Origin: Candidatus Babeliales bacterium
Lineage (GTDB): Bacteria > Babelota > Babeliae > Babelales > Vermiphilaceae
Length of the DNA stretch: 64,000 nucleotides
Direction of reading: 5' to 3'
NCBI GenBank assembly: GCA_963743635.1
Contig: CAVUQO010000003.1
Span: 352,001-416,000 of the forward strand
Below, piece after piece: positions 6,381 to 47,305 of this stretch. Positions within the stretch are counted from its first letter, which is position 1, and each line of letters opens with the position of its first letter. The notes beneath the pieces were generated by a model that was not told where the DNA came from, did not search any database, and saw only the letters and a program-made list of their open reading frames with translations. A program made the translations under genes and the position numbers.

Positions 6381-7355
6381 TTACGCAACGACTGGCTGAT
6401 TCTTTTTTGCGCGTGCAAGTTTGAATGGTTTACCATTGGTGCGGACATGCAACATTTTGATGAACTTGGTAAATGGTTTTTCTGCTGGTGCTTCTTTATG
6501 CCAATGATCCATGGTGTTGATAATATCTGCCAAAAAAGTCAGAAATCGTGGAAACACAAATTCACTATGGAAAATAGAACGGCCATTCATTTTTATTTTG
6601 ACTTGTTCGAGATTGTCTTGATCGGGGAAGTAACGGCCTGAAAGCCAGTGTGATGATTTGGTGCCATTCTTATAAAAACCTTGAGGATCAAGAATTTGGC
6701 ACATATCAATTTGCGAGTAAATGCAAAATATTTTTTTAAATGCCGGATCTTTAATGAGTGATGCTGTTTTATCTTGAACAGGGCAGGCGAGTAAAATCAG
6801 CTCATCCACCGTGAAGCCTTCTGGTTTTGAGGGAATGCGCGCTAAGTTGAGTGCGACATTGCCGCCATGACTATGACTTATAATACGCACGCTTGGCTTT
6901 ACATTATGACGTATTTGGTATTGCTCAAGAACTGCTATGAGATCTCTATAAAGATGTTCTGCGGCTTGTTCCCGTACGCCAAAATCAAGTTTGCCTGACC
7001 AACCAAAAATGTAGAACGTATCGTGTGAAAAGAGATTGGGCGCAGCATTGACCAATGTTTTACCTATTTGGTGCATATGATAGCGCGGTTCATAGTCGCG
7101 TGCCAAAGAAAGCCCAGGCCTTGAATAGATGAAGTTGCGCAGTGCGCCAGCTACGTCAAAAAGCCGTGTGCCGTGAATCCAGATGGTGATCGTATGATTG
7201 TCTTTTGCTTCAGGAGACACATCGATCGCGGTACGGACATTTTTAGGCGCAAAGACGACCTGCTTTTTCAGTGTCTGGAACCGTTGGGAAGAACAGCCAG
7301 GCAGCATAATCAGCAGTAGATAGAACAGGTGGAGGTAGGAAATGCGGGATTTCAT
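6381..7355 (-). CDS. Alpha/beta hydrolase-fold lipoprotein
   Basis: Lipobox-like LPGC; IWIHGT; nucleophile elbow SHSHGG. Confidence 0.75.
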   Translation of the reverse strand: MKSRISYLHLFYLLLIMLPGCSSQRFQTLKKQVVFAPKNVRTAIDVSPEAKDNHTITIWIHGTRLFDVAGALRNFIYSRPGLSLARDYEPRYHMHQIGKTLVNAAPNLFSHDTFYIFGWSGKLDFGVREQAAEHLYRDLIAVLEQYQIRHNVKPSVRIISHSHGGNVALNLARIPSKPEGFTVDELILLACPVQDKTASLIKDPAFKKIFCIYSQIDMCQILDPQGFYKNGTKSSHWLSGRYFPDQDNLEQVKIKMNGRSIFHSEFVFPRFLTFLADIINTMDHWHKEAPAEKPFTKFIKMLHVRTNGKPFKLARAKKNQPVVA

Positions 7356-7624
7356 TGTCGTGCGTCGCTACAATAAGCCTATAATAACAGTATCTAAACG
7401 TTACAATCCCTTTTAAAAAAGAATATGGTATTATATACAGCTTGTCAAACAACAAAAGGGGTTATCTATGTGTTTTTAGCTACTTTTTATGCTGCAGGCA
7501 CAGCTCCTTGAAGCCTTTAGGAGGTTTTTAGCCTTTATTTGAGCCAAAAAAGCGGCTTTGAAATTCTGATTGAGGCTCTAGATGGCTTTGTCTGAATTAA
7601 TTTGTTTCACGCTGAAATAAATCA

Positions 7625-7654
7625 TTGAGATATGTGATGTTTTTTTGATAGGCT
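7625..7654 (+). promoter_or_regulatory. Sigma70-like promoter upstream of ncRNA candidate
   Basis: TTGAGA (7625-30), 18-nt spacer, extended -10 TGa-TAGGCT (7646-54); +1 near 7660. Confidence 0.45.
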
Positions 7655-7659
7655 TATTC

Positions 7660-7768
7660 ATGAGGTTGGAGGCCAGCAGTCTAAACCCAGTGCGATCCTT
7701 GGATCCCGCTCGGTCTAGACTGCTTGAATGCGAGTAATCGTACCAAGCGCGCTACCTTCGGCCTCATG
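7660..7768 (+). ncRNA. Candidate structured ncRNA, three-way junction, family not recognised
   Basis: Closing stem ATGAGGTTGGAGG/CCTTCGGCCTCAT (G-U pairs fit + strand), arm AGTCTAAACC..GGTCTAGACT, arm GCTTG-aa-TGCGA-GTAA-TCGTA-c-CAAGC with GNRA loop; T-rich tail follows. Confidence 0.6.
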
Positions 7769-7950
7769 TCTTTTGTTTCACGAATTGAGCTGGTTTGAAA
7801 AGCGGTTGATGGATATTGCCTGTCATGTGCGGCTAAGATATGCATACCCTAGTTTAAATCCTAAAACCCCGAATCTCATTGCTTTTTAGGCCCCCTTTCC
7901 ATATACTGAAAGTGTAATAATTCTCTATTATAGCCGTTAAGGGGAATATC

Positions 7951-8379
7951 ATGGATACAATGGTATATATGTGGCTCAGCATCGCAGTATGCTTTCTCAT
8001 TTTTGAGGTCGGCCATCCCGGACTATTTTTCTTCCTTTCATTTTCATGCGGCGCGGTGTGCGCAGCAGCTCTGAGCTACGGTGAGTGTGGGCTTACCTGG
8101 CAAATTATTGGTTTTTTAATCAGTGCGGCATGTTCGTTACTGATCATGCGAAGCTTATTTCTAAGTAATGCGCAGAGCGGTACCCCGACCAATGTTTATG
8201 CATTGCAAGGAAAACATGCGGTGGTAACCCGTGCCATTCCAGCCCATGGTGTAGGGTCTGTGAAAGTAGGCGGGGAAGAATGGACTGCTGAATCGTTACA
8301 CAATGAGGCATATGCAGTTGGTACGCGTGTGACCATTATTCGAGTGCAAGGTGCTCGGGTGATCGTTGAGCGCGCTTAA
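7951..8379 (+). CDS. nfeD: NfeD-like (YbbJ) membrane protein
   Basis: Hydrophobic N-terminus plus OB fold GSVKVGGEEWTAES; directly upstream of SPFH gene. Confidence 0.9.
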   Translation: MDTMVYMWLSIAVCFLIFEVGHPGLFFFLSFSCGAVCAAALSYGECGLTWQIIGFLISAACSLLIMRSLFLSNAQSGTPTNVYALQGKHAVVTRAIPAHGVGSVKVGGEEWTAESLHNEAYAVGTRVTIIRVQGARVIVERA

Positions 8380-8418: not shown

Positions 8419-9402
8419 ATGATCTTAGAATTTGGCATTTTTGCCATCGTAGTATTCATCTTTTTGATGGTGTTCATTGCAAAAGCAATTTACTTGGTAA
8501 GGCAATCTGAAGTAATGGTCATTGAAAAGTTTGGTAAATTTAGTCGCGTATTGCATCCAGGGATTCACTTTGTGATTCCGTTTGCAGAAACTCCGCATCA
8601 AGTAACCTGGACATTCATCTATCAAGGTGAAGGCAAGCGTTATTATCGTGTGACCAAGCAAGTAACGCGTATTGATATGCGTGAGGCGGTCTATGATTTT
8701 CCAAAGCAAAATGTGATCACTAAAGATAACGTCACCATGGAAATTAACGCGTTGCTCTATTATCAAATTACTGATCCTAAAGCAGCAATGTATGAAGTAT
8801 ATGATCTTCCAGAAGCTATCGAGAAATTAACACAAACAACATTGCGTAACGTCATCGGCTCTCTTGATCTTGATGAATCACTCGTTTCACGTGACCAAAT
8901 CAATGAAAAGTTGCGCATCATTCTTGATGAAGCAACGGATAAGTGGGGCGTCAAAGTGAACCGCGTTGAGCTGCAAGAGGTAAATCCTCCAGCAGACATT
9001 CGTCAGGCGATGGAAAAGCAGATGCGCGCTGAACGCGATCGTCGTGCGGTAATTTTGGAAGCTGAAGGTAAAAAGCGAGCAGCTATTTTGCAAGCAGAAG
9101 GTGCGCAAGAAGCGGCAGTGCTTGATGCACGCGGTGAAGCTGAATCAAAGGCAATTCGTGCCCAAGGTGAAGCGGATGCACGCTTAAAGATTGTTGAGGC
9201 CGAAGCAAAGGCAATTGGCATGATTACTCAAGCGGTGCCGGGCGTCGATCCATTGCCATACATGATTGCGTTGAATTACATCAAAATGATGCCTGAATTA
9301 ACGGCAGGTAAGAATGATAAGCTTATCTTGGTTCCGTACGAGGCAAGTTCACTCGCTGGCTCATTAACGGCAATGAAGAAGATGTTTGAAGAAATCAAAT
9401 AA
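8419..9402 (+). CDS. qmcA: SPFH/band 7 (QmcA/stomatin-like) protein
   Basis: VITKDNV, QTTLRNVIG, WGVKVNRVE, AMEKQMRAERDRRA. Confidence 0.93.
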   Translation: MILEFGIFAIVVFIFLMVFIAKAIYLVRQSEVMVIEKFGKFSRVLHPGIHFVIPFAETPHQVTWTFIYQGEGKRYYRVTKQVTRIDMREAVYDFPKQNVITKDNVTMEINALLYYQITDPKAAMYEVYDLPEAIEKLTQTTLRNVIGSLDLDESLVSRDQINEKLRIILDEATDKWGVKVNRVELQEVNPPADIRQAMEKQMRAERDRRAVILEAEGKKRAAILQAEGAQEAAVLDARGEAESKAIRAQGEADARLKIVEAEAKAIGMITQAVPGVDPLPYMIALNYIKMMPELTAGKNDKLILVPYEASSLAGSLTAMKKMFEEIK

Positions 9403-9457: not shown

Positions 9458-9538
9458 TCATGAGTGTGATTTATGTTCCTTATTCTTTTCCCGCAGCAAT
9501 GCGCTGGTAAGAAGTAGTGGAATTAATAACTTTTTCAT
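9458..9538 (-). pseudogene. Signal-peptide-only stub closing the GNAT array
   Basis: MKKLLIPLLLTSALLREKNKEHKSHS*; 9499-9551 is 50/53 identical to 10074-10126. Confidence 0.6.
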
Positions 9539-10113
9539 GATCGTACTCTTTTATTTATGTGTAACTTTTTCATCATGAATAACCACATTGGTCTATCATG
9601 CTCTGGTTGGGAATACTGTTGTTTTTTATAAAAATGTTGGGCATCGGAGATACTATTGAGGTACATATAATCAATGTTATTCTGGATAGCGTTATCTTCA
9701 GCTTTTTTTAAAAGTAATGCACCCAATCCTTTACGCTGTTGCTTAGGATCAACAACGAGCCACTCTATTTTGGCGCCATTCATTTTGTTTAGTTCGATCG
9801 TTGAGGGGCAGTCAGGCATTTCATTATAAGCAACAGCGCGCGACTTCGCTTGATATATAATACAACCGAGGAGACAATCAGGACGATTTGAGCGTGTTTT
9901 GCGATAACTTCTAACCGCAACATCAATCCAATTTTTTCGGCAAGCTCTGTGACGAGTGACCGCGGCTGGTGGCGTTATCCAGGTAAATTCTTGCGTAAGA
10001 AGTTTGAGTACGGAGTCTTTATCTGTTTCATGATTAAATGACCTGATGCGCACATCTTCCATTGCATGCATCGATGCGCTGGTAAGAAGGAGTGTAATTA
10101 ATAACTTTTTCAT
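9535..10113 (-). CDS. Exported GNAT acetyltransferase (array member 1)
   Basis: SMHA|ME; acetyl-CoA motif VVDPKQQRKGLGALLL; AQHFYKKQQY. Confidence 0.88.
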   Translation of the reverse strand: MKKLLITLLLTSASMHAMEDVRIRSFNHETDKDSVLKLLTQEFTWITPPAAVTRHRACRKNWIDVAVRSYRKTRSNRPDCLLGCIIYQAKSRAVAYNEMPDCPSTIELNKMNGAKIEWLVVDPKQQRKGLGALLLKKAEDNAIQNNIDYMYLNSISDAQHFYKKQQYSQPEHDRPMWLFMMKKLHINKRVRS

Positions 10114-10117
10114 GATC

Positions 10118-10606
10118 TTACTCTTTACTAATAGTCTTGCGCATGTAAAAGGGTATCTCTGTGTCTTCATAAGCATATCCTAGCTGTTCATAAAAAGATT
10201 GCTTGCCATTGATAGGCTGAAGAAATAGGTGATGGTCTTTTTTAGATGTCTGTATTGATTTTTCAACATGTTGCATGAGTAATTGGCCGTATCCCTTACA
10301 TCGATATTCGCGTGCAACAGATACTGCTTTGATTTCAGTCTCCGTTATTGATGAGCGATCCGTTGTTTGATATACAATGGCTCCCAATACTCTGTCTTCG
10401 CGCTTAGCCCGTGGTTTGACAAGAACATTTATTGTTATGTTAGGGTTACTTAAAATGTTGATGTCAATTAATGATTTGAATAGATCGAGGGCATTGCTTT
10501 GTTTTGCGGGATCAAACGGCACAATGCGCACATCTTCCATTGCATGCATCGATGCGCTGGTAAGTAGGATGGTTAGTAAGGCAAAAAGAGATCGTTTAGT
10601 ATACAT
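10118..10606 (-). CDS. Exported GNAT acetyltransferase (member 2)
   Basis: SMHA|ME; VSVAREYRCKGYGQLLM; FYEQLGY. Confidence 0.9.
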   Translation of the reverse strand: MYTKRSLFALLTILLTSASMHAMEDVRIVPFDPAKQSNALDLFKSLIDINILSNPNITINVLVKPRAKREDRVLGAIVYQTTDRSSITETEIKAVSVAREYRCKGYGQLLMQHVEKSIQTSKKDHHLFLQPINGKQSFYEQLGYAYEDTEIPFYMRKTISKE

Positions 10607-10619
10607 ATAAATTCCTTTC

Positions 10620-11279
10620 TTAGATTAAAAATTTAGTAAAGTGAAGACCTATGCCTTTGTTTTTGTTTTCTGTGCGGTCGTCTTTCACTTGCTTAAGCAT
10701 ATCTTGCATGTCTTCATTCATAGGGAGTGCCATCGAATCATGGGTTGTAGCATCGGCAGTGGTTTTAAAATATCCATGTTTTTCATAGAATGATCGAGTT
10801 CTATTAATTGCAACGAGGGCGATAATGTCTTGATCGGTCTTCTGCGCTACTTGCCCAATATGATTCAATAATCGTTGTCCAAATCCGTGTCCAGCACGCT
10901 TGTTAGTTTTGCGAAATTTATTAGCTATGGCCAGATAATCGAGCCGTAAAATATTAAGATAAGCTGATGAGTGTTTATATCTTCGTATGTCTGAAAAAGC
11001 TGCTTTATGCGGTATTGTTTCATTGTTCCAGATCGCAAAGCCAGCCGGTTTTTTTAGATATTCTAACACGGCGATTTTTGTTTCCGGATGATCTGTAGGT
11101 TTTGTAAGTTCTGAAGGGGGTTCTTCAGCATCAGGAAATGCGTTTAAGAAGATAGCTGAAACTTTTTTACCATGGGTCACGGGATTATAATCCACAATGC
11201 GTATCGCATCCTGATCCATTGCATGCAGCGAAGCACTGGCAAGAAAGAGAGCGAGTAGGTAGGAGTGTATTAATTTCAT
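10620..11279 (-). CDS. Exported GNAT acetyltransferase (member 3)
   Basis: SLHA|MD; LAIANKFR..AGHGFGQRLL; FYEKHGY. Confidence 0.88.
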   Translation of the reverse strand: MKLIHSYLLALFLASASLHAMDQDAIRIVDYNPVTHGKKVSAIFLNAFPDAEEPPSELTKPTDHPETKIAVLEYLKKPAGFAIWNNETIPHKAAFSDIRRYKHSSAYLNILRLDYLAIANKFRKTNKRAGHGFGQRLLNHIGQVAQKTDQDIIALVAINRTRSFYEKHGYFKTTADATTHDSMALPMNEDMQDMLKQVKDDRTENKNKGIGLHFTKFLI

Positions 11280-11291
11280 CCTTTGTCCTTG

Positions 11292-11942
11292 TTAAATGAA
11301 ATTTTTATTTAACAAGGTGGATTTTTGCTGTTCATAGTTTTCTTCACGTTTGGCGATTACCTCACGTAATATCTCTTTCATAGTATCATTCAGCGGCAGT
11401 GCCATGCGGTCTATTGAGAGTTGGCGAGGCAGAGTGTTGATGAAACCATTCTTTTCATAAAAAGGTCGCGAACCATAAGCTGCATGGAGGGATATGACAT
11501 CAGTCTCATATTCGTTCGCTTTTTCTCTAATGTAGTGTAATAAAGAAGAGCCAAGGCCCTTGCCTGCTCTGGTGTCAGTGTGGCGATGATTCTTGTGTAT
11601 TGCGATATGGAGGATCCGTACTATGTTAAAGTGTGTACGATTGTGGGTAGGATTATATATATCATTGAAGGCTTGATGCTTGGTCAATATTTCCCTTTCC
11701 CAGATTGCAAAACCAACGGTTTTCCCGTTCTCTTTCAGCACCGTTATATGCGCGTTGAGAGAAGTTGGCGTATTAATGAATACTGGATCAAGATCTGCGC
11801 CGCCAAATGCCTCTGAAAAGATATTTTGAACTTTGAGGGCATATTTTTGTGTAGGATCGTATTCAATATAGGTGAGATCTTTATGCTCCATTGCATGCAG
11901 CGATGCGCTGGCAAGAAGGAGAGTGAGTAATAATTTTTTCAT
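11292..11942 (-). CDS. Exported GNAT acetyltransferase (member 4, paralog of member 3)
   Basis: SLHA|ME; IAIHKNHR..AGKGLGSSLL; FYEKNGF. Confidence 0.88.
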   Translation of the reverse strand: MKKLLLTLLLASASLHAMEHKDLTYIEYDPTQKYALKVQNIFSEAFGGADLDPVFINTPTSLNAHITVLKENGKTVGFAIWEREILTKHQAFNDIYNPTHNRTHFNIVRILHIAIHKNHRHTDTRAGKGLGSSLLHYIREKANEYETDVISLHAAYGSRPFYEKNGFINTLPRQLSIDRMALPLNDTMKEILREVIAKREENYEQQKSTLLNKNFI

Positions 11943-12463
11943 GAGATTTTCCTTTTTTCTGTTGTTATATCGCTATCACGATTGAGATATTTTATCATGG
12001 TTAAAGATTCCGGCGCTTTCTCTCTGAATGCGAGCTTTTTTGTATAAAATTTTTTCGATTCTGGAGTAGCATTTATTTCTATTAAATCGATGTTATTTCT
12101 TGCCTGTACACCATCTATAAGCATCTGCACGAGGTTGGTGCCATAACCCTTAGATCGCATTGATTCAACGATAGCAAGGTTATATACATGGCGCTTTATG
12201 CGATTATTTGCAGTAAGAAAATCCCGAAAAATGGCAAATCCAATAAACGTATTATTGAGTAATAATGCGCAATTGCTGCTTTTTTGATCGTATAAGGCGT
12301 CTGACGCACTGCCATCAAATGTGCTACGATATAATTCTTCCGCTGCATGCCCATGGACCGCTTTATTAAGCGCGACGAGTTGAAGGTCATCAGGATTACT
12401 CCAGAGTGATGTGCTGCTCAGCAATAGAAGCGGTAATAATATATTAATCCTGAGAAGAGTCAT
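11939..12463 (-). CDS. Exported GNAT acetyltransferase (member 5)
   Basis: Hydrophobic leader; LAIVESMRSKGYGTNLV; KKFYTKKLAF. Confidence 0.87.
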   Translation of the reverse strand: MTLLRINILLPLLLLSSTSLWSNPDDLQLVALNKAVHGHAAEELYRSTFDGSASDALYDQKSSNCALLLNNTFIGFAIFRDFLTANNRIKRHVYNLAIVESMRSKGYGTNLVQMLIDGVQARNNIDLIEINATPESKKFYTKKLAFREKAPESLTMIKYLNRDSDITTEKRKIS

Positions 12464-12468
12464 AAGGT

Positions 12469-13074
12469 TTACTTCTTGCACCGTTTAAATGGATTAATGC
12501 TATCGATTATTCGTCTAGAAAATGAAGGAGTAAGATTTTTTATCATGATGGTTGAATCATTGGCGTCAATATAGGTGAAATTGCGTAACTCAAATGAGTG
12601 TTTTGATTCATCCCTTGTCCATGTAGACATGCGCATAATGTGCATTTCAGCAGCCGTTTCTTCCAGACATTGTATGGCCTTAGGCTCATATCTTTCATAT
12701 CCTTCTGTCATGATAAGATCATCGATCTTGAAAAGTTCTGTATTGGCGCGGCGCGTGCGTTGGCGGCTATAGAGTGCGATTCCTGCTATTTCGTTATTCA
12801 CTAGAAACACCGTTGCTGTTTGCTGACCAATGCGGTCATTGTGAGACGCCAGAGGATCAGTCGTTCCTTCCAAGGCGCTCGGCATGAGCTGACTTATTCT
12901 AGATTGCGGAGCATCGGCAGGGATCCTGGCAGCCGTAAACATTGCTTGTGCTTGCTCAGCATGGCTTGCAGGATTGAAAGGCACCATAGTGAGTTTCTGC
13001 GTGCATCCCATGAGAGAAATGCCGCTGGTAATTGCGATCAGCGCAATGAATATATTATTTTTTAAGGTCTTCAT
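12469..13074 (-). CDS. Divergent GNAT-fold lipoprotein (member 6)
   Basis: Lipobox-like LMGC; shares MVPFNP and IAGIALY elements; CoA motif degenerate (EGYERYEPKAI). Confidence 0.7.
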   Translation of the reverse strand: MKTLKNNIFIALIAITSGISLMGCTQKLTMVPFNPASHAEQAQAMFTAARIPADAPQSRISQLMPSALEGTTDPLASHNDRIGQQTATVFLVNNEIAGIALYSRQRTRRANTELFKIDDLIMTEGYERYEPKAIQCLEETAAEMHIMRMSTWTRDESKHSFELRNFTYIDANDSTIMIKNLTPSFSRRIIDSINPFKRCKK

Positions 13075-13091
13075 AGTGTTGTTCTCCATTT

Positions 13092-13658
13092 TTAGTTATC
13101 AAAAATATTATTGATGTAATTATCAAATACAATGAGTGTGGGCTCGGAGGTAATATGCTTATACATATGGCTCCTGAATGGCCCCATACGTTTGAAGCCA
13201 AGCTTCGCATAAAAATTAATAGCATTGCCTGTCGATAGTACGGTGAGAGCTTTTATGCCGGAATCACGCGCTTGCTGTTCTATCTGAGCCATAAAATATG
13301 CAGCATAATGCAATCCGCGATACGCTTTATGTATGATTAGATAGTCGATATTACGCTTTAGTTCTTCAGAATCGGTATAAATTAGGGTTCCTACTGCAGT
13401 ATCATGAGCTAATAAAATTTTTATGATTCGGTTGGAGCGCAGGGAGGCTAAGATAAAATCAAATGAGGTATTGAAAAAGTCTTTTTTGAATAGATCACGC
13501 ATATACGGTAGATGTGTTTCTTCAAAGGGCACAGCCTTGAGAGTGAATGACTGGTGGATAGCCGCAAGCTCTCGATACATCTGTTCAGGATTCGGGCTCA
13601 TAGCTTGAATAGCTATAGTCTGTGCTATAATTGCTAATCCAATTAATAATTTCTTCAT
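13092..13658 (-). CDS. Exported GNAT acetyltransferase (member 7)
   Basis: AIQA|MS; LIIHKAYRGLHYA; AINFYAKLGF. Confidence 0.88.
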   Translation of the reverse strand: MKKLLIGLAIIAQTIAIQAMSPNPEQMYRELAAIHQSFTLKAVPFEETHLPYMRDLFKKDFFNTSFDFILASLRSNRIIKILLAHDTAVGTLIYTDSEELKRNIDYLIIHKAYRGLHYAAYFMAQIEQQARDSGIKALTVLSTGNAINFYAKLGFKRMGPFRSHMYKHITSEPTLIVFDNYINNIFDN

Positions 13659-13841
13659 GTATTACCTCCTATTCCAGGTCAAAAAAAACCTTTGTTTACA
13701 ATACAATATTAACATTTATTGAATATATTGCAAGCGGGTTATTTTCTATCTGTCACTAGCAGAGAGGTGGCTTTTTGCAGGTTCGTGAACCTGGGCCAAT
13801 AAGGTCTAGGGGAAACAAAAAGGAGAAAATAGAGACTGCTT

Positions 13842-14429
13842 TTAGGCGAGTTGAGGAATGCATTGAAGATTATTGGCCGGAATCGCATCAAGAGCTTGAA
13901 AAGGTTCAAGATTCTTAACCATATAATTTGAATAAGAGCTTGTCGCCTCAAAGCCGAGTCTGGTATAGAACGGCGTAGCGCGTGATACCGCGTTTAAAGA
14001 GATGCTGGTTATTCCTTGGCTGCGGGATAATGCTTCAAATTGCTGCATAAAATGGGTTCCGAGCTTGTGATTGTGATAATCGGGATCTATAGCCAATAGA
14101 TTGACGTAGCGCATAACCTGGCCATTTTGATTGATTTCGTCTTGGTACTTGATAAAGCCAATGACAACGCCATTAAACATCAAGACGTGGGCTGAGGGAT
14201 TGCCCTTGCCGCATAGGAGTGGGGTGGTAACGTACTCAGGAGGCACGCTGAAGGCCCTTGAATAGATTGATTTTGCCTGTTTGCCATGTTTGGCTTCTAC
14301 AAAAGGCACAACTTTAAGATCTAAGCCTTGTTTTACCGTAAAGTTGGCTGTTTGCTGATCCGCGCAAAGAGGTGCGCTGCCAGCCAAAATGAAGAGTAGC
14401 GCAAAGAGTCTACTTCTGAAAATATTCAT
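13842..14429 (-). CDS. Exported GNAT acetyltransferase (member 8)
   Basis: Leader ...APLCA; LAIDPDYHNHKLGTHFM; ATPFYTRLGF. Confidence 0.88.
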   Translation of the reverse strand: MNIFRSRLFALLFILAGSAPLCADQQTANFTVKQGLDLKVVPFVEAKHGKQAKSIYSRAFSVPPEYVTTPLLCGKGNPSAHVLMFNGVVIGFIKYQDEINQNGQVMRYVNLLAIDPDYHNHKLGTHFMQQFEALSRSQGITSISLNAVSRATPFYTRLGFEATSSYSNYMVKNLEPFQALDAIPANNLQCIPQLA

Positions 14430-14544
14430 GAAATTCCCTAAAATCCCATAAGATTGATGTTCCCTAACAATCTTTAGAATATATAAATTATAGGAAAGAG
14501 CAAAGTTCTTATTGGCTGTTTATGGCGTATTTAAGGGCTTTTAT

Positions 14545-14629
14545 GGGTGTTGCAGGGATGCAGAGACTATGTCTATTGCAGCTTTTCCCAAGCCGCCAGC
14601 CTCACTCAGTTCCTTGCGCAGGGTGTTAA
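14545..14629. repeat. Direct-repeat copy of the ABC-F 3' end (other copy 15352-15443)
   Basis: 14557-14629 matches 15369-15443 except a 2-nt deletion. Confidence 0.9.
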
Positions 14630-14634
14630 TATTA

Positions 14635-15279
14635 TCATATCTTATTGGCTTTGATCTCTTTAATGAGAGAATTGCAGAATAAATCACTGCATTGGTAGTC
14701 ATTTCTTCGATAGAAATTTTTAGGCCTATCGAGAGATACTAAAGAGACGGTAGATACACCATCTTCAGCGGCTAGATCCTCAAATTCTTTTAATGCCTGA
14801 GTGCCAATGCCATTGCCACGATAGTGAGCCCCTACTGAAAAATAACAGAGATGACGGATCTTGTGATATTTTAGGGGTAACTCCTTGCCATAAAACCATT
14901 TATGCGTGAGATAATAGAATAAATCCACCGTCGTATAATCATAAACTGTATCATCTTTATAAATCATAGAGCCCATTACAGTATTATTTGAGACTATGGC
15001 GAATGCTTTGTGGGTCTTTTCTTTCCCATACGGTTCACCCCCGTTTAGCACAGAAGGCACACAATAGGAGGGGAATGCCTCAGCCCAAATCTTAGATGCT
15101 TTCTCTCCATGTTTTGCATGGTTAAAAGCTACCAATTTGGGTTGGTTACGTTGGTTAATTGATTGGTTAATTGATTGGTTAATTGATTGTGCTAAAAATG
15201 ATTGAAACATGCCAAAAGCAGGTACATAGCCTGCGAAGGCCATGGCCATAGCAAAAAATGCTTTTTTGATTCTATTCAT
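14635..15279 (-). CDS. Exported GNAT acetyltransferase (member 9)
   Basis: PAFG|MF; FSVGAHYRGNGIGTQAL; NFYRRNDY; (SINQ)3 tandem repeat. Confidence 0.88.
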   Translation of the reverse strand: MNRIKKAFFAMAMAFAGYVPAFGMFQSFLAQSINQSINQSINQRNQPKLVAFNHAKHGEKASKIWAEAFPSYCVPSVLNGGEPYGKEKTHKAFAIVSNNTVMGSMIYKDDTVYDYTTVDLFYYLTHKWFYGKELPLKYHKIRHLCYFSVGAHYRGNGIGTQALKEFEDLAAEDGVSTVSLVSLDRPKNFYRRNDYQCSDLFCNSLIKEIKANKI

Positions 15280-15384: not shown

Positions 15385-17249
15385 CTATTGCAGCTTTTCC
15401 CAAGCCGCCATTGCCTCACTCAGTTCCTTGCGCAGGGTGTTAAATTTAGTCTGAGCAGTATCAAATTCAGGGGTACCGTATTCAAGATCAGCAAACTGCA
15501 GGCCGACTTGGGCTATCTGTTGCTCATATTTTTCGATTTTACGCTCAAGCAGTCGGAGTTCCCTTTTCTGATCGTCAGCTTTGTCATCCGTATCTGGAGC
15601 AGCTGAAGCTGTTTTTGCCGCTGATGTTTTCTTTTCTTTTGGTTCAGTCAGATTAGCGAGGCATTCTTTTTGATAGCCAAAATCATCATAATTGCCGTGA
15701 TAGATATGAGTGCCTTCTGGTGTCAGTTCCATAACGTGGGTAGCCAGGTCATTGATAAAATCCCGATCATGCGAAACGAAAAGCATGGTGCCTTCATAAC
15801 TTTGCAATGCCTTCAATAACACTTGCTTAGCGAAGATATCAAGATGGTTAGTCGGTTCATCAAGCAGGAGTAGGTTTGCTTGTTGGAGCAATACGCTGGT
15901 CATACCAACTCTATTTTTTTCACCACCACTGAGAACTTTTACTTTTTTATTCACATCATCATTGCTAAAAAGCATGGCGCCGAGCATGGTGCGTGCTGAT
16001 TGTTGGGTGGCGCTTGGGCAACGCAACAATATGTTCTCAATGACTGTTTTATTGCCATCAAGTGCACGGGTTTGATCTTGGTCGAAAATTGTATGATGTA
16101 CCTTCTCGCCAAAGGTTATGGTGCCAGATTGGCAGGGCAATGAGCCGGTAATCATATTAAATAACGTGGTTTTACCGACGCCATTGGGCGCAACTAATGC
16201 AACTTTTTGTCCACGTTCAATGGTGAATGAAACATTCTTAAAGATCTCACGTTTGCCAAAATGTTGGCTTACATTGTTCACCGTCAACACAGTACGCGCC
16301 GGAACGTTGCGTCGGAGGAAAGGTGAAATGACATTGTGCGCGGTGATGGCGGCAATACGATCAGTTCCATTTTCTCAAGCTGTTTTATCATACTTTGTGC
16401 CATCTTTGCTTTGGAGGCAGATGCGCGAAAGCGGTTGATCGTTTCTTTTTTTTGTTTGATATCTTTTTGTTGCTCGTTATACGCCTGTTCAAGTAAGGCA
16501 GTACGTGCTTCTTTTTGCTCTTCATAATCAGCATAACTGCCGGTATACATCATGCCATTACCCAGCTCAAGCTCGTAAATATGAGAACAAAGCTCATTAA
16601 GGAGGTAGCGTTCATGGCAGACAATCATAAAGCCAAACGATGCTTGATGCAGAAAATTTAAAAACCATTCTTTTGCAAAGATATCCAAGTGGTTGGTAGG
16701 TTCGTCAAACAGGTAAAAATCAGCCTCTTCAAGAAGGAGTTTGGCAAGAACGATTCGCATTTTCCAGCCGACGCTCAAATGCTGTACAGGCTCATGAAAG
16801 CGACTTTTATCAAAACCAAGACCTTGCAAAATGCGTTCTGCATGCGCACGCTTTTGTTCTGGATTGAGTTGCAAGAGCCGTTCATGAATATCAGCATAAC
16901 GGTTAAGATGGTCATGAACCGGATCGGTTTCAATTTTTTTCTCTAGGATTTCAGCTTCAAGCTGCAAAGCGGCGATTTCGGTAAATACGCTGAGCGCTTC
17001 ATCTAATATGCTTTTATCCGAATCCAAGACCACTTCTTGAGGCATATATGCAATTTTTTTGTTACTCAGTATGGTAATAGCGCCGCTATCAAGCATTTGT
17101 GGATGATGAATAGCTTTGAGCAGCGTTGATTTGCCCGATCCATTACGGCCAACAAGCCCGACCCGTTGGGATGCATCCACGGTGAAGGAAATGTTGTTAA
17201 AGATTGGTTGTGTGCCGAATGTTAAAGTAACGTTTTTTGCATATATCAT
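15385..17249 (-). CDS. ABC-F family ATPase (Uup/YheS-like), frameshifted near 16290-16330
   Basis: GRNGSGKST, LSVGW, DEPTNHLD in 16284..17291; APNGVGKTT, LSGGEKNR, DEPTNHLD in 15385..16290; removing two single bases restores MSFTFPPTQRSGRTVLTV. Confidence 0.9.
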
Positions 17250-17403
17250 GCTCTTATATCCTTGGTAAATGAAGCGTATGAGGAAAGCCAAGCTGTGAAT
17301 GATGACAATTTCCGGACAAACAGATTGTTTGCATAGAAAAATGTAATTGTTTTGTTAAGCTTACAGACTGTAGTATTTGTTATACGCATACTCTAGGATT
17401 TAA

Positions 17404-20201: not shown

Positions 20202-21012
20202 GGGACTTATCTTTTTCTAGGAAATCTGTGATAAATAAATTCCTATAGAATGTACCATAAATCGAACAATGCGTCGATTTTGACGCTTGTTTAGCAAGTT
20301 GGGTGGCGATTCCCTTCTCCTATGATTGGGTCTGCTGATGGTGCGGGAGTATAAGATTCGTGCGTTGATATAACGCGGTCCGTGGGCCTGCGTTATAAAG
20401 AGCAATTAGAGAGCCTATTTTGAGTAAGAGGAACGCCGCAATGATTGCGAGTGCACCAACGTATTCTTTACTTCGCATGATTATATTCCTTCTTTATAAT
20501 CAATTGATTTGAGAAATGTGGACGGTAATGTTTTGTCAGAAGTGACTGTGAATTTTTGACGCTATACGGCTATCACCAACCTTGAGGACATTTTACTTCG
20601 TATGACCGAAATCCTTTAAGAATATGGAGCACTGCTTACAGAATTTAGTTGTATCACAAAGACGGAAAAGCAGCAAGAGATTTAGGATCACTTCATTCAG
20701 CGTGAATCGAGCTGTGTGTTGATGAAGTTTGACTTTATATTTTTTTTATAAAATTCGATGTTTAAAAGATAACTACCGTGCTGTTTTTGATTACTGTATC
20801 TTATTTGTTCATGTTGTTTTTATATGTGCGGACTTCGTCTAACGAGGATGCAGGTGAGTGTGGTGGCTCATAAAGGAGGTTCGTCCGGATCACTGAGTAA
20901 TCGTTTTTTGTAATTAAATTAATCGAGGCGCAACGATGTCGGTATGAGTCGTCTATCAGTAGCGCCCCGATATGGATAGATGCGGATAGACGAAATTTGG
21001 GGGTATTTTTTA

Positions 21013-21166
21013 TTCTACTTCGCGAAATACCACATGCTTTAGTCTGTGGATGGAAGCGAATAGAATAACCCGGCGAAGCAAAACACTTCCTGAGGTATAA
21101 CTTCGAAGTATTAGCGAAGCCTGGGTGAGTCCAACTGCGAAGAACTCCATGCGATACAACGGGTTT
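21013..21166. repeat. Dispersed palindromic element, copy 1 (MITE/REP-like)
   Basis: Matches 63467-63607; 53-nt identical core 21074-21126 = 63525-63577. Confidence 0.85.
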
Positions 21167-21194
21167 TAACTTTTGTATCGCATGGAGTTCTTCG
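21138..21194. terminator. Perfect 22-bp inverted repeat at a gene 3' end
   Basis: CGAAGAACTCCATGCGATACAA-13 nt-TTGTATCGCATGGAGTTCTTCG abutting stop at 21195. Confidence 0.6.
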
Positions 21195-21614
21195 TTATTC
21201 GCTTATTTTAAACGAATTGCGTTTTATTTCTTCAGATTCTTCTTTAATTATGCGCTCGATTTCCTTATCGAGATCAAATTCCTTGCTTAAGTAGATCGAA
21301 AGCTCCAGTAAGTAGGCCAATAATTCGTCTTTTGTTTTGCAATCGCGATGCGCGGCGGCGATTGCGATGTTCACAATATTTCCCAAAATACCACCGACGT
21401 TTTGACCAACATTTGGTTTATTGTGCGGATCGCCGACGATTGATCCAACATGAGCAAGAATGTTGGCGACGCTGTGAATGATGTATTGCGGTCTTGAATT
21501 TTTAGGCTCTTGGCGAGCAATCTCATCTACCTCCTGCGTAGCATCCGTGGCGGCGTATGCGGTGACCGGATTTACTAGCAGTGACGATACAAAAAGACCA
21601 TATAACAGTTTCAT
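21195..21614 (-). CDS. Exported hypothetical protein
   Basis: Start reassigned to MKLLYGLF after AAAGGGAG; leader ending TAYA. Confidence 0.7.
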   Translation of the reverse strand: MKLLYGLFVSSLLVNPVTAYAATDATQEVDEIARQEPKNSRPQYIIHSVANILAHVGSIVGDPHNKPNVGQNVGGILGNIVNIAIAAAHRDCKTKDELLAYLLELSIYLSKEFDLDKEIERIIKEESEEIKRNSFKISE

Positions 21615-21807: not shown

Positions 21808-23106
21808 ATGAATAAAAGAGTCATTCTGTTCAGCGTATTGGCGCTGTGTGCATCGATTGGACTTGTGCGGGCCGGTGAATTTGGCAGACGGAGTGTTGAG
21901 AAGGGGGAGAGTTCTCGCGGTGCTAAACAGGCAATGACGGATGAAGAACTCTTTGAAGTGCATAAAGAAGATGCGATCGCAGCAAGGAAAAGTCATATCA
22001 CTTACGTAGCAGGTGTAGGGGATTTGAGGACGGTTGCTGCCTGGCTTAACGGTAAGATCCCATCGCGTTTAACGCTGGCGCAGTTGCTGCTACTCAAAGA
22101 TCAGCATGGATCAACGGCATTAATGTGGGCATCGAGCAATGGTCATTCGGAAGTGGTGGAACTGTTATTAGCTTATGCGGATAGGGCGGGAGTTTTGACG
22201 GAGATGTTGAAAGCAAGAGCGCTGAACGGCAATACGGCATTAACATGGGCAGCGAGTAGGGGGCGTGATGAGATAGTGAAAATGTTGTTAAAAACAGCAT
22301 TAGAGGAAACAGACATTTTGGTGGATCTGATGCAAGTGAGGGATAATGACGGCAAAACGGCATTATCGTGGGCGGCGGGCAATGGGCATGTCCAAGTAGT
22401 GCGACTTTTATTACGAGTAGCGAAAGGGGAGGGCATTTTGGCAGACATCGTGCAAGCTCAGAATAATGAGGGATCAACGGCATTAATGTGGGCGGCGAGC
22501 AATGGGCACACTGAAGTGGTAAAAAATTTATTGGAGAAAGTTCAAGAATTTGGCATGAGCAAATCAGAGCTCTGGAGTATTGCATCGCATGCAACTAAAG
22601 AAGGAATGAGCACATTGATGAGTGGAGCTACTGCGGGAAGTAGAGAAATTGTGCAATTGATTTTGAACTCTGCTTATACCAATAGGCCCTCTGATAAAGC
22701 GTTCATCGATTTTGTTAATGCTCAAGATGCTCTAAAGGGTAGAACCGCAATTCAGTGGGCGATTCGTTTTGTGCAAGGGTCTGTCGAAAAAGAAAAAGAG
22801 CAACATTCTGAGGATGAGATGTTGGGCGTTATAGAAGAAATCTTCAAGTATGATAATTTCCCGCATTTGACTGTGAATATTATTTCGCAAGATAAGAACG
22901 GGAAAACTGCAATTTTTTGGGCAGCCTACGCAGAATGCAATAAAATTCTTAGGTTTTTTGAGAATGTAGCACGTCGGCGCAACTATAGTAAAAATAAATT
23001 CTTTGAAGAAATTGAAGCCGGGAAAGAAATGGGAAGAACGTCGACCACGAGATCGCGATCCCCAATTTTCCAAGGATCTTCATCATCTGCATCTTCATCT
23101 AAATAA
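21808..23106 (+). CDS. Exported ankyrin-repeat protein
   Basis: Leader LVRA|G; about seven G.TAL.WAA..GH..VV..LL-type repeats. Confidence 0.93.
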   Translation: MNKRVILFSVLALCASIGLVRAGEFGRRSVEKGESSRGAKQAMTDEELFEVHKEDAIAARKSHITYVAGVGDLRTVAAWLNGKIPSRLTLAQLLLLKDQHGSTALMWASSNGHSEVVELLLAYADRAGVLTEMLKARALNGNTALTWAASRGRDEIVKMLLKTALEETDILVDLMQVRDNDGKTALSWAAGNGHVQVVRLLLRVAKGEGILADIVQAQNNEGSTALMWAASNGHTEVVKNLLEKVQEFGMSKSELWSIASHATKEGMSTLMSGATAGSREIVQLILNSAYTNRPSDKAFIDFVNAQDALKGRTAIQWAIRFVQGSVEKEKEQHSEDEMLGVIEEIFKYDNFPHLTVNIISQDKNGKTAIFWAAYAECNKILRFFENVARRRNYSKNKFFEEIEAGKEMGRTSTTRSRSPIFQGSSSSASSSK

Positions 23107-23269: not shown

Positions 23270-24589
23270 TAGATTTCTCCAGGGCCATTATCCTCATCGG
23301 ATTTTTTGGTGAAGATCAGAACTTCAAGCACGCGTTTATCGCTTGCTTTTTGTACTTGAAAGTAATGATTTTTATAAAGAATTCGTTCACCTTTTTTGGG
23401 TAAATGCTGCAATTGCTCGGTTAGAAAACCAGCAAGCGTGATCGAGTCTTCTGATTCAAAGGTGATACCCAAATGGCTTGCAAGGCTTTCGAGTGGTGTG
23501 CTGGCATCAACGAGCCAACCACCTTGTTTGAGCGCAATAATTTTTTCATGTGAAGGATCATGTTCGTCACTAATTTCGCCGACGATTTCTTCCAAGATAT
23601 CTTCAAGTGTAATGAGCCCCGTAATGCTGCCATGCTCATTGAGTACGATTGCAATGTGCATGTGCTGCTGACGAAATTCTCGCAGGAGTTGATTTATTTT
23701 CACGCTTTCAGGAATAAACATAATCGGACGCACGATATCTTTGAGTGGCTTATCTTCATTGCGGGTGATGTAGCCAAACACGTCTTTCAAGTGCACCATG
23801 CCGATGATGTTATCTTGTTGCCCATTATATACCGGTAATCGGGTAAAATGCCGTTTGCCAAATATTTCAAGCGTATCTCTGATGGTGGCGGTTACATTTA
23901 CTGAAACGATATCGGTTGCAGGCACCATGATATCTTTAACGGGAGTCAGTCCAAGATCGAAAATGTTTTTAAGCATTTCACTTTTTTCTTGTTCCATAAG
24001 CCCTTTTTCATTGATGTAATTGATCAAGAATTGAATTTCTTTTTCGGAAGATACCCATTCAACGCCGCCACTCAACCGTGTGCCGCCGAGTGAATATACG
24101 ATGAAATCAGTCAGTTTAAGTAGAATTGTCACGATATGGATAAAGGAAGTAGAAAATGATATTGGTTATCCACAATGTTGATGGAAACAGTCTTCTCTCC
24201 ATGCGATTTTGCAAGATTTTTGGGTAATATTTCACCAAATATGAGAATTGCGAACGTGGCAAAACCAATACCCAGCGAAAAGCCAAGACCGCCCGTGATA
24301 TGAAAGCTGGCAAAGAATGCTTTCAATAATTTGAGTACCTAATGATGCAGCAGTCACTTCTGCAAGGCTGCTCGCAATCAAAATGGTAATCAACACACGA
24401 TGAGGCGTTTTTTCCAGTGCTTGAAAAAAATGCGCCATATTTATTGGTTGATGCGGCTAATTCTTTGAGTTTGAATAGCCGCAGAGCAGTGATGCTAGTT
24501 TCAAGAAATGAGAATAATGCGCGTGCAGTCAATGCTATTACAAAAAAAATAGCGGGTGACGACACGCTTTGCATACTACAGGGTTCCAT
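23269..24589 (-). CDS. HlyC/CorC (CNNM + CBS + CorC_HlyC) family protein, frameshifted
   Basis: [26 protein letters not shown] pair HFTRLPVY and [16 protein letters not shown], spread over four ORF pieces. Confidence 0.88.
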
Positions 24590-24639
24590 ATATAACTTTA
24601 CAATCCTTATATAATTAATAAAATTCATATTACTGAGTA

Positions 24640-26744
24640 TTATTCGTGTTTCATCAGTTTCTGCAAGAATTTCTTCATATCCATCTTCTCCGTCTTCTAG
24701 CTCTTGCAATTCTTTATCAAAGAATGTGTGCAGTTTTTTGCTGCGTGATGGATGGCGAAATTTGCGCAATGCTTTAACTTCAATTTGACGAATACGTTCA
24801 CGGGTAACTGAGAAGTCTTTACCAACTTCTTCAAGCGTATGCTCGGAGGCAACATCGATACCAAAACGCATTTTAAGTACTTTTTCTTCACGTGGAGTAA
24901 GTGTTTTAAGCACTTCGCGAACTCGTTCTTTCAGATCATTATTGCAACGGTATCAGAAGGTGAAAAATCAGTATCACTTTCAATAAAATCTTTAATGGAC
25001 GCATCTTCACTATCACCAACCGGTGTTTCAAATGAAATAGGCTCTTTAGAAATCTTGATGATATTTTTAATCTTCTTTTCATCAATATTAAGTTCTTTTG
25101 CCAATTCAGCATGGCTTGGTTCACGGCCATGTTCTTGAATAAAGGTACGTTTGATTTTATTGATCTTATTGAGTGTTTCAACCATATGAACCGGCACACG
25201 AATGGTACGTGATTGATCGGCAATTGCACGGGTAATTGCTTGGCGGATCCACCAGGTTGCATAGGTTGAGAATTTAAATCCACGCTCGAATTCAAATTTT
25301 TCAACCGCTTTCATCAAGCCGATATTACCTTCTTGAATCAAATCAAGAAAGTGCAGTCCGCGATTGACATATTTTTTGGCAATATTAACCACAAGCGCAA
25401 GTTTGCTTTTGCAAGATCATCTTTTGCGCGTTTATCTTTGACTTGTCCAGTCATGAATTGTTGAAAGTATTTAAACATGAGTGAATGTGGCAGACCAACT
25501 TCAACTTCAATTTTTTTGATCTCTTTTGCAGCTGCCACGTATTGCGATCAAGTTCTTCAATAGCGTGCAATTGATCTTCAGCGGTTTTTTGATCGCAAGT
25601 AATGGCTTTAATTGCTTTCAGTTGATCTTGAGAAGCATAATTTCTTTTTCTTGATTTTTTTAATATATTTTTCAATTTTTTTGCCAAGCTTTTTAATGAG
25701 CTTATTGGAAAGTTTAATCGTGCGAATAGTTTCGCCGATTTTTTCTTTATTCTCGCGCACCTTTTGAAGCATCTCATCTTTTTTCTCTTCAGAATCAAGC
25801 TTTGCCACGATAGCTTAAATAGATCTTTTCTTCATTATCAATCAGATCTTTAATCTCTTGAATGGTATCAAAAAGTGCTTTTTTTTCTTTTTCGATATTA
25901 GGAAGATTTTCTTCATCAAACTCAGAGAATTGAATAATATCTTTCAGAGCAACGGTATTTTTCTGAAGCTTTTCGCCCATCCATACAAATTCTTTATGAA
26001 TAACCGGAAAGCATGAAATAGCATTAAGACTATCTTTTTTGCTCTGGGCGATTTGTTCAGCGATGACTGTTTCAGTTTTTTTATTTAAAAGAGGAATTTT
26101 ACCAATGTCACGCAAATAACATTTGACCGGATCAGTGATATAGGCAGAACTTGCAGTACGGCTGGCTCTTTTTCATCGCCTTCATCTTCTTCATCATTAT
26201 CTTCATCAAAATGATCGGCGCCTAAATCAAGAGAACTCGAAATTTTAGCTTTGATGTTCAGGGGAGAATGCTCTTCATCCTGATCAAATGCTTCCAGGTC
26301 ATCAGGATTTCCCTCAAGCTCTTCTTGCATAATGAAATCAATGTTTTCTTTTTCCATGTGTCGGATGAGATCATTGGTTTCTTGTTCATTGAGATTGTTC
26401 TTTTCACCAAATTCGATCAATTCTTCATAGGTAAGAATGCCGTGTTTACGGCCTTTATCTACGAGTTCATCAACAAGATCTTGTTTTAAATCGAGACTTG
26501 AGCCTTTACTGACCTCTACTTTGACGTGAGGCTTCGGTGCGGCCTTTGATTTAGCTTTAGCCGCAGCTTTTGCGCCCGTTTTGGGCTTAGCGGTAACTTT
26601 TCGTGCTTTTAGTTCAGCAGGAGTTGTTTCTTCTTCATTTTCAGACTCTTCGGTTCTTGTTTTTGAAAATGCTGAAACGGCCGTTTTAAATAGGCGGCTT
26701 AACGCTGTTTCGGTCTTTTTTTCTTTTTTAATTTTTTTTGTCAT
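24640..26744 (-). CDS. rpoD: RNA polymerase primary sigma factor, about six frameshifts (likely assembly indels)
   Basis: Region 1.1 [50 protein letters not shown], region 4 [18 protein letters not shown]; downstream of dnaG. Confidence 0.93.
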
Positions 26745-33861: not shown

Positions 33862-34482
33862 TTACTCCTGGGCCTTTTTATAGCTGCGAATGAAATGCAT
33901 GATGCCATTAAATTGGAATTTCTTGAGTTCAGCAAGATCAGTAATGCCATTGCGGTTAAGGATGTACTGATAAGTCTCATTCTTCACGCCCATGAGCTTC
34001 ATGGACTCTTGCAGTTGGGTTATCTGTTCAGAATCAATGAATTCTCTGTCTCTTTTTTCTATATACTTGCGCTCAGCTTCGCCATCATCGTCTTCTGTTT
34101 CGAGTGCACAGAGTGATAAGACTGCGTATCTACGCATATAAGTATTGGTGCTGCCTATCGCCTGATTGCCCGGTTTTTCGCTTTTTAATGGTCTGGTATC
34201 TTGCACAAATTGACCAGATGGCGCGTGAATCAAGCGCGTATGCAATACCGATTCGGCATCAGCTAATCGTTCTGCAAAATGCCAAATAAATATGTTGTTC
34301 TGGTGTAGCGCTTCTTCTACCGCCTCGTAGACGGCAACTAAGTTTGCATACTTATGCAAATTACTTTTGGAGTTTTTCTTAGCTCCTCTCATGCGCATTT
34401 TAGCTTGCAAAAAAGCTTGCGTGAGTTGTCTGATATCATCAGACATGAGATGAGTTTTATTCGATTGGTGTTCTTGTTCCAT
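33862..34482 (-). CDS. ERF-family single-strand annealing protein
   Basis: KYANL..VYEAV, TRLIHAPSGQ, QAIGSTNTYMRRYAV, EDDDG. Confidence 0.88.
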   Translation of the reverse strand: MEQEHQSNKTHLMSDDIRQLTQAFLQAKMRMRGAKKNSKSNLHKYANLVAVYEAVEEALHQNNIFIWHFAERLADAESVLHTRLIHAPSGQFVQDTRPLKSEKPGNQAIGSTNTYMRRYAVLSLCALETEDDDGEAERKYIEKRDREFIDSEQITQLQESMKLMGVKNETYQYILNRNGITDLAELKKFQFNGIMHFIRSYKKAQE

Positions 34483-47093: not shown

Positions 47094-47196
47094 GATTTCC
47101 CTTTTTGATTTACAAGGTAATGTAGGAAAATCTAATATAATCTCACGCTTGATGCAAGGACGCGATATTTTCTATGCCGTTCATATTAAAATAAAA

Positions 47197-47281
47197 AATC
47201 AGCCTCTGCGCCCTTCAATACATTTCGATACTTTCCCCAAACTCGGGGCAGTATCGAAATACTCAGGGGCAAAAGGCTGAT
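47197..47281. repeat. Palindromic element (CCCTTC...ACTCAGGG type)
   Basis: ATCAGCCT/AGGCTGAT outer stem; ATTTCGATACT/AGTATCGAAAT inner stem. Confidence 0.7.
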
Positions 47282-47305
47282 CAAGAATTGCTTACGGTAT
47301 GGTTC

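Follow-up and report, generated by a model that had tools for sequence, protein, structure and literature searches.

The 64-kb stretch of DNA analyzed here, referred to below as the window, contains a 595-nt spacer between a gene for a PGAP1-like alpha/beta hydrolase and a divergently oriented nfeD gene, which is followed by a gene for an SPFH/Band 7 protein. The hydrolase carries an LPGC motif near its N terminus, which we read as lipobox-like. The spacer also holds a predicted structured RNA with promoter-like and terminator-like sequences at its two ends. The features of the locus, in window positions, are the following.

6381-7355, minus strand: PGAP1-like alpha/beta hydrolase, the divergent neighbor (Pfam PF07819, E = 2.6e-5)
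7625-7630, plus strand: -35-like hexamer TTGAGA, matching TTGACA at 5 of 6 positions
7646-7654, plus strand: extended -10 TGATAGGCT, separated from the -35 hexamer by an 18-nt spacer (sequence reading)
7659-7768, plus strand: structured RNA of ~110 nt, a predicted three-way junction (folding, and a match to covariance model R2 with exactly these ends)
7659-7672 (5' strand) with 7755-7768 (3' strand), plus strand: P1, the closing helix, 14 bp with 3 G-U pairs (folding, inverted repeat)
7675-7677 with 7751-7753, plus strand: P1b, a 3-bp extension in which AGC pairs with GCU (folding)
7678-7721, plus strand: P2, a variable long hairpin arm of 44 nt with single-mismatch interruptions (folding, inverted repeat I1)
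7722-7748, plus strand: P3, a 27-nt hairpin interrupted by an internal loop and capped by the GNRA tetraloop GUAA at 7734-7737 (folding)
7769-7779, plus strand: U-rich tract UCUUUUGUUUC directly 3' of P1, a putative intrinsic termination site (sequence reading)
7951-8379, plus strand: nfeD (Pfam)
8419-9402, plus strand: SPFH/Band 7 protein (Pfam)

The initial annotation had described a GC-rich island in an AT-rich spacer that folds into a three-way junction with a G-U-containing closing stem, a long interrupted arm, and a GNRA-capped arm. Every one of these elements was present when we folded the region, with a closing stem of 14 bp instead of the 13 bp given there and a GC content of 0.56 for the element versus 0.35 and 0.39 in its flanks. 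The predicted structure has 44 pairs (22 GC, 17 AU, and 5 GU), such that ~80% of the bases are paired and ~20% are unpaired. The 121-nt stretch containing the element has a minimum free energy (MFE) of -54.3 kcal/mol (z = -6.68), and none of 200 dinucleotide shuffles was as stable. The mean pair probability is 0.95, the MFE structure holds a 0.36 share of the ensemble, and the fold is stable across 20 to 45°C and is also kept within a 321-nt context. The second AGC/GCT pairing noted earlier does exist; it extends P2 by pairing AGC at 7675-7677 with 7722-7724, and it is less favorable by 2.4 kcal/mol (-51.2 versus -53.6 kcal/mol).

When 8518 windows of 120 nt from both strands were scanned, this element had the lowest absolute MFE in the 64-kb window. 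After correction for GC content, its MFE lies at -3.75 standard deviations and ranks roughly seventh among distinct loci; the only two higher-ranked loci that were folded, 21137-21195 and 47170-47300, are long simple terminator hairpins with U-runs.

The element did not correspond to a known RNA class in our searches. Rfam 15 returned no match at the gathering score anywhere in the window and no match at E ≤ 10 within 7640-7790, including none to 5S rRNA (RF00001) or to the signal recognition particle (SRP) clan, and the predicted fold is a three-way junction rather than a single long hairpin. Rfam likewise identified no rRNA in the 64 kb, and ARAGORN identified no tRNA or tmRNA gene in it. 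The absence of a strong Rfam match agrees with the earlier description of an uncharacterized RNA, which is further supported by the single copy in the window and by the two homologs with a conserved fold described below.

Two small open reading frames (ORFs) overlapping the region were considered and rejected as genes. A 54-aa ORF on the minus strand has no homolog, and a 53-aa ORF on the plus strand has four weak matches (E = 2.7e-12 to 2.5e-4) to proteins of 201 to 1817 aa, three of them in several short stretches and one without a scored stretch, which we read as compositional. The reading frame that starts at an AUG conserved in all three RNAs comprises 25, 82, and 6 codons, respectively. 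Since this frame varies so widely in length and the 54-aa ORF lacks a homolog, the element appears to be noncoding.

Homologs of the element were sought in 79 loci of 20 kb around hydrolase homologs, which were collected in a genome scan and are mostly titled Dependentiae, Babeliales, or TM6. Single-sequence blastn and nhmmer searches detected no homologs; only an unfiltered covariance search succeeded. A model built from the window sequence alone (R1), when run without filters, gave full-length matches to L009:6178-6280 on the minus strand (25.1 bits, E = 0.0017) and to L004:9682-9788 on the minus strand (16 bits, E = 0.16), which were its top two matches within the 38 kb searched. A second model (R2) was built from the L004 and L009 sequences only. 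Even though the window sequence is absent from this model, R2 recovered positions 7659-7768 on the plus strand of the window exactly, at 49.2 bits (E = 2.2e-10), whereas its runner-up was a terminator hairpin at 21.0 bits.

Folded singly, the L004 and L009 RNAs adopt the same architecture as the window RNA, with a P1 of 13 to 14 bp that P1b extends by 3 bp, a P2 that varies, and a P3 whose loop is GUGA in L004 and GUAA in L009. The three RNAs are ~103 to 110 nt long. The L009 RNA has an MFE of -40.3 kcal/mol (z = -4.27) that was reached by 0 of 200 shuffles; the L004 RNA alone (-37.2 kcal/mol, z = -2.82, 1 of 200 shuffles) is only modestly more stable than shuffled sequences. Both are also GC islands (0.47 versus 0.30 in one case and 0.40 versus 0.26/0.24 in the other). 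Neither of them gave more than chance matches to Rfam, with scores of 7 to 20 bits against gathering scores of 37 to 102.

The search for further members was extended in several ways. R1 and R2 with default filters over all 79 loci added no homologs, and a search of the same loci (--max setting) with profile hidden Markov models (HMMs) for the RNA and for the promoter together with P1 retrieved L004 and L009 only. A third covariance model, R3, run unfiltered on 25 loci, found only simple hairpins with a deleted interior (≤20.7 bits). Filter-free searches with one model or another covered 27 distinct loci in all, and filtered searches and profile HMMs covered the remaining 52. Within this coverage, the RNA was found in 2 of the 79 loci, that is, in 3 of 80 sequences when the window is included, and most related genomes whose loci we examined lack the element at this slot. 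The initial annotation regarded many dispersed copies as the mark of a repeat; within the sequence searched, the 64 kb of the window plus 1.39 Mb, the RNA occurs once in the window and once each in L004 and L009, and phage and plasmid collections contained no match to it.

Several candidates were set aside in the course of these searches. The R3 match at L069:12520-12607 (17.3 bits) has many broken pairs and lies inside a transketolase gene. L012:342-459 on the minus strand looks similar by eye and was not counted, since it matched neither R2 nor unfiltered R3 and has a z score of -2.56. L054:15613-15728 matches only in its end motifs and was rejected. Descriptor and regular-expression scans gave many chance matches and no further member. 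The carriers were also compared in a quick tree of transketolases, where all three share one poorly resolved half without forming a supported clade. The RNA may have a single origin in them.

The three RNAs are 39 to 53% identical in pairwise comparisons, and the hydrolase proteins that flank them are 40 to 44% identical. In a three-sequence alignment (A7), which was guided by a model based on the fold of the window RNA itself and whose pair counts therefore lean toward that fold, 88.5% of the 113 pair cells were paired, compared with 31 to 47% when the partners were slid by 1 to 3 columns. Both partners had changed in 27 of the 40 pairs. These two-sided changes affect 8 of 10 pairs in P3 and 14 of 17 pairs in P1 plus P1b, the latter count being inflated by a one-column offset of L009 in P1. 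None of 500 shuffles reached any of five covariation measures on A7. The RNAalifold consensus comprises 33 pairs, 26 of which show two-sided changes, and it keeps P1, P1b, the base of P2, and P3.

In contrast to these conserved helices, P2 varies in length and sequence in L004 and L009 and can be aligned at its base only, and the linkers at the junction are conserved neither in length nor in sequence across the three members. Three members are too few for a statistical covariation test of the R-scape type; within this set, and in a model-guided alignment, the fold is nevertheless kept through many two-sided changes. The lack of covariation that the initial annotation had listed among the signs against a functional RNA was thus not observed, and its suggestion to collect homologs yielded two full-length ones.

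The flanking sequences are conserved in position as well. The TTG of the -35-like hexamer occupies the same alignment column in all three members (TTGCTA in L004 and TTGCAT in L009), and the extended -10 is equally spaced in each (TGTTATGGT in L004 and TGATATCAT in L009) and ends 4 nt before the first P1 base. The resulting pattern, TTG-N15-TTGnTAnnnT-N4 upstream of P1, is aligned without internal gaps in all three. At the other end, a U-run follows the 3' strand of P1 in every member (UCUUUUGUUUC in the window, UUUUUUUAU in L004, and UUUUUUCUUGG in L009). These positions are in line with the -35/extended -10 and the T-rich run after the last paired base that had been proposed from the window alone. 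A stricter consensus scan called neither the promoter nor the terminator; its terminator search allows loops of 3 to 8 nt, and P1 encloses a branched interior of 82 nt, which is unusual for a terminator hairpin. The promoter pattern itself is not enriched in the window (3 sites versus 3.3 ± 2.1 in shuffles).

The conserved upstream motif and the U-run in the three members argue for transcription from the plus strand as a separate unit. The minus strand of the element folds less well (-51.6 kcal/mol, z = -5.15). P2, being nearly palindromic as DNA, can fold on that strand too. The five G-U pairs on the plus strand versus approximately two on the minus strand are a weak indicator that would not settle the matter by itself, and we chose the plus strand chiefly because of its promoter, U-run, and closing helix.

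Taken together, the fold, its retention in diverged sequences, and the fixed geometry of the flanking motifs suggest that the element is probably a genuine, conserved structured RNA gene that is separately transcribed from the plus strand. It represents a family without an Rfam match that has at least three members, all of them in "Candidatus Dependentiae." Judging from the sequences, a sigma-70-type promoter with an extended -10 at a fixed distance of 4 nt from the first paired base would drive its transcription, and P1 together with the U-run would act as an intrinsic terminator, giving a discrete, closed RNA of ~105 nt.

The genes around the three RNAs bear on the alternatives to this interpretation. 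The hydrolase (orthologs at L004:9953-10924 and L009:6587-7573) is the sole neighbor common to the three RNA loci; it is always divergent and lies 165 to 320 nt away. The gene 3' of the RNA differs from locus to locus (nfeD in the window, an ankyrin-like gene in L004, and an ORF of 272 aa in L009), so that the association with nfeD-SPFH is not conserved. In all three loci, the RNA and the next gene are on the same strand. The gap between them is 183 nt in the window, 149 nt in L009, and, in L004, ~22 nt past the U-run. Directly 3' of the RNA in L004 (7654-9701, minus strand) there are two tandem paralogous genes whose products have ankyrin-like repeats and a hydrophobic N terminus by eye.

In the wider set, the hydrolase is present in 258 confirmed genomic places, and its homologs are named "Candidatus Dependentiae" (TM6) and Babeliales. 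The best identity to the window's hydrolase among the 79 loci is 46%, and closer relatives (P0002-P0015) are 64 to 74% identical to it. Thirty-one loci have the same order, transketolase - hydrolase followed by divergent nfeD - SPFH. In two other Dependentiae genomes, the hydrolase-nfeD spacers (L011:8828-9979 and L027:9310-9955) share a GC-rich palindromic element (GTCATCCCGAG...GGGGATCCAG), which looks like a dispersed repeat unrelated to the RNA.

The main rival to a separate RNA gene is a 5' leader or attenuator, in which the promoter would drive the downstream gene and P1 plus the U-run would form a leaky or regulated terminator that gates read-through. The shared orientation of the RNA and the next gene in all three loci is what this model predicts, and the arrangement in L004 is particularly suggestive, since GAGG and the start codon (ATG) of the ankyrin-like gene come within ~22 nt of the U-run, leaving no room for a separate promoter. 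This makes the earlier description of the element as a stand-alone gene less than fully secure. In the window and in L009, however, the gaps to the next gene are considerably wider, and nfeD has a plausible promoter of its own near 7879-7921, as read from the sequence. The downstream genes are also unrelated to one another, which argues against a dedicated cis-regulator. The nonconserved junction and linker nucleotides make a ligand-sensing core unlikely, and no competing antiterminator fold was found, given that the sole alternative pairing retains P1. On balance, we consider a leader unlikely, albeit the best of the competing explanations.

A related possibility, a riboswitch of the three-way-junction type, was examined and rejected, as its linkers are not conserved and the genes downstream are unrelated. 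Like purine-type riboswitches, the element forms a P1-closed junction and precedes a gene in the same orientation. Unlike them, it has a junction that is not conserved, a P1 whose length and stability would prevent switching, and no visible expression platform.

If the RNA gene is instead tied to its one constant neighbor, it could act as a local regulator of the divergent hydrolase gene, through either promoter interference or pairing with the hydrolase mRNA. Besides the shared, always divergent position of the hydrolase, this idea draws on an 11-mer, ATAGGCTTATT, which lies at the RNA's -10 (7648-7658, plus strand) and recurs in inverted orientation at 7372-7382 on the minus strand, 17 nt before the hydrolase start codon. 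Such an inverted copy is within chance, however, since shuffling the intergenic region yielded one in 225 of 1000 trials, and none was seen in L004 or L009. Moreover, the 258 genomic places of the hydrolase contrast with the RNA's occurrence in 2 of 79 loci, and the RNA has almost no unpaired sequence with which to pair an mRNA. Local control of the hydrolase is therefore a possible but unsupported reading, to which we attach little probability.

It is still less probable that the element has no function and is a palindromic insertion, a mobile-element remnant, or a decayed gene fragment that happens to fold. The length of the spacer is compatible with an insertion, since it measures 595 nt in the window but falls below 300 nt in 20 of 31 loci that have this gene pair, and so are the near-palindromic P2, the folding of the minus strand, and an 11-nt direct repeat, TTTGTTTCACG, that flanks the element (7601 and 7772). 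We rejected this repeat as a target-site duplication because 79 of 1000 shuffles contained an equivalent one, which is not significant. A gene remnant was rejected as well, since tblastn with ORFs from the spacers of other loci and a search with the hydrolase profile gave no match. The element also occurs as one copy per locus and matches no phage or plasmid sequence. Its fold, promoter geometry, and slot have been kept at 39 to 53% identity with two-sided changes, which neutral decay would not be expected to do.

A highly divergent version of a known RNA, namely, 5S rRNA, 4.5S/SRP RNA, 6S RNA, or a Y RNA, is very improbable, since the resemblance in size and paired ends to 5S rRNA is outweighed by the absence of any Rfam family at E ≤ 10, by the low scores of the homologs relative to the gathering scores, by the lack of an rRNA or tRNA gene nearby, and by the absence of the element from this slot in most related genomes, which does not fit an essential RNA.

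Having weighed these alternatives, we return to the reading of the element as an independent RNA gene, for which the architecture offers some indication of how the product might act. By analogy, we tentatively suggest a stable protein-binding RNA that serves as a scaffold or decoy, a proposal that we hold at less than even probability. Since both ends are buried in P1 and only ~20% of the bases are unpaired, seed pairing with mRNAs is unlikely, and the buried termini, the ~80% of bases that are paired, the freedom of P2 to vary, and the nonconserved linkers make protein binding the most likely mode among those considered. A small RNA (sRNA) that works by seed pairing, a riboswitch that senses a ligand, or a ribozyme seems less likely to us.

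Like a generic sRNA gene with a sigma-70 promoter and an intrinsic terminator, the element is an intergenic GC island with a promoter-like motif and a helix followed by a U-run; unlike such genes, its helix before the U-run closes the whole molecule, with no separate 3' hairpin and almost no single-stranded seed. 5S rRNA has a length of ~110 to 120 nt, ends paired in helix I, and a three-way junction with two arms. The element resembles this architecture (RF00001) in size, paired ends, and junction but differs from it in having a 14-bp P1 and one GNRA-capped arm, in lying outside an rRNA operon, and in being found in 3 of 80 sequences. 6S, Y, and 4.5S RNAs are end-paired, stable RNAs that act through protein binding, and the element shares with 6S, Y RNA (YrlA), and 4.5S its paired termini, its high stability, and the small number of unpaired bases. 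In contrast to them, it has no Rfam match, lacks the central bubble of 6S, and lacks a tRNA-like module.

In its most ambitious form, the proposal would make the element the founding member of a Dependentiae-specific group of stable, end-paired ribonucleoprotein RNAs, a counterpart of 6S and Y RNAs with a dedicated protein partner, in which P1 would be both terminator and recognition helix. We regard this extension as speculative and rather unlikely. The window's ORFs gave no Pfam match to a Ro/Rsr domain and include no evident protein partner.

The Dependentiae (TM6) are an uncultured phylum of obligately intracellular parasites of amoebae and other protists. To our knowledge, no regulatory RNAs have been described in them, and among the records that literature searches listed, none dealt with a structured or regulatory RNA particular to "Candidatus Dependentiae." A fold, promoter geometry, and slot that are conserved in three genomes therefore provide a testable entry into the RNA biology of this group. 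The family would be an addition to Rfam, and R3 can be used to collect members. The closing helix of a branched RNA that apparently doubles as a terminator stem is also of some interest for the study of termination. With three members in hand, the find is a modest one.

The terms nfeD, SPFH, stomatin, flotillin, band 7, and Dependentiae do not occur in the main text of PMC11109978, nor do nfeD, SPFH, stomatin, flotillin, band 7, and TM6 occur in the main text of PMC8632094, although the supplements of either paper may list motifs. The passages available from PMC13100048 held nothing relevant.

Several other features of the window were noted along the way. A stretch of ~1 kb at 20202-21194 has no ORF of ≥110 aa and no Rfam match; it ends in the perfect 23-bp hairpin at 21137-21195, which is followed by a U-run and is probably a terminator (z = -6.67 for the 211-nt stretch around it). 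On the minus strand, nine ORFs lie in tandem at 9535-15279, eight of them with matches to GNAT acetyltransferase domains. Two translations from this array were inspected, and both begin with a similar hydrophobic, signal-peptide-like N terminus.

The sigma-70 gene (rpoD; 24323-26744, minus strand) is broken up into four ORFs whose reading frames differ, with region 1.1 in 26085-26744, regions 2 to 3 in 24931-25392, and region 4 in 24323-24913. This arrangement points to frameshifts, caused by either indel errors in the assembly or pseudogenization. A gene for an ABC-F type ATPase (15385-17291, minus strand) is similarly divided between two ORFs, 15385-16290 and 16284-17291, which overlap and differ in frame, and this second apparent frameshift suggests that the assembly may carry indel errors.

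An ERF-family recombinase gene at 33862-34482 (minus strand) is possibly a prophage remnant. The window also encodes a TLC-type ATP/ADP translocase (54696-56102, minus strand) and an ankyrin-repeat protein (21808-23106, plus strand), both of which fit an intracellular, host-dependent lifestyle.
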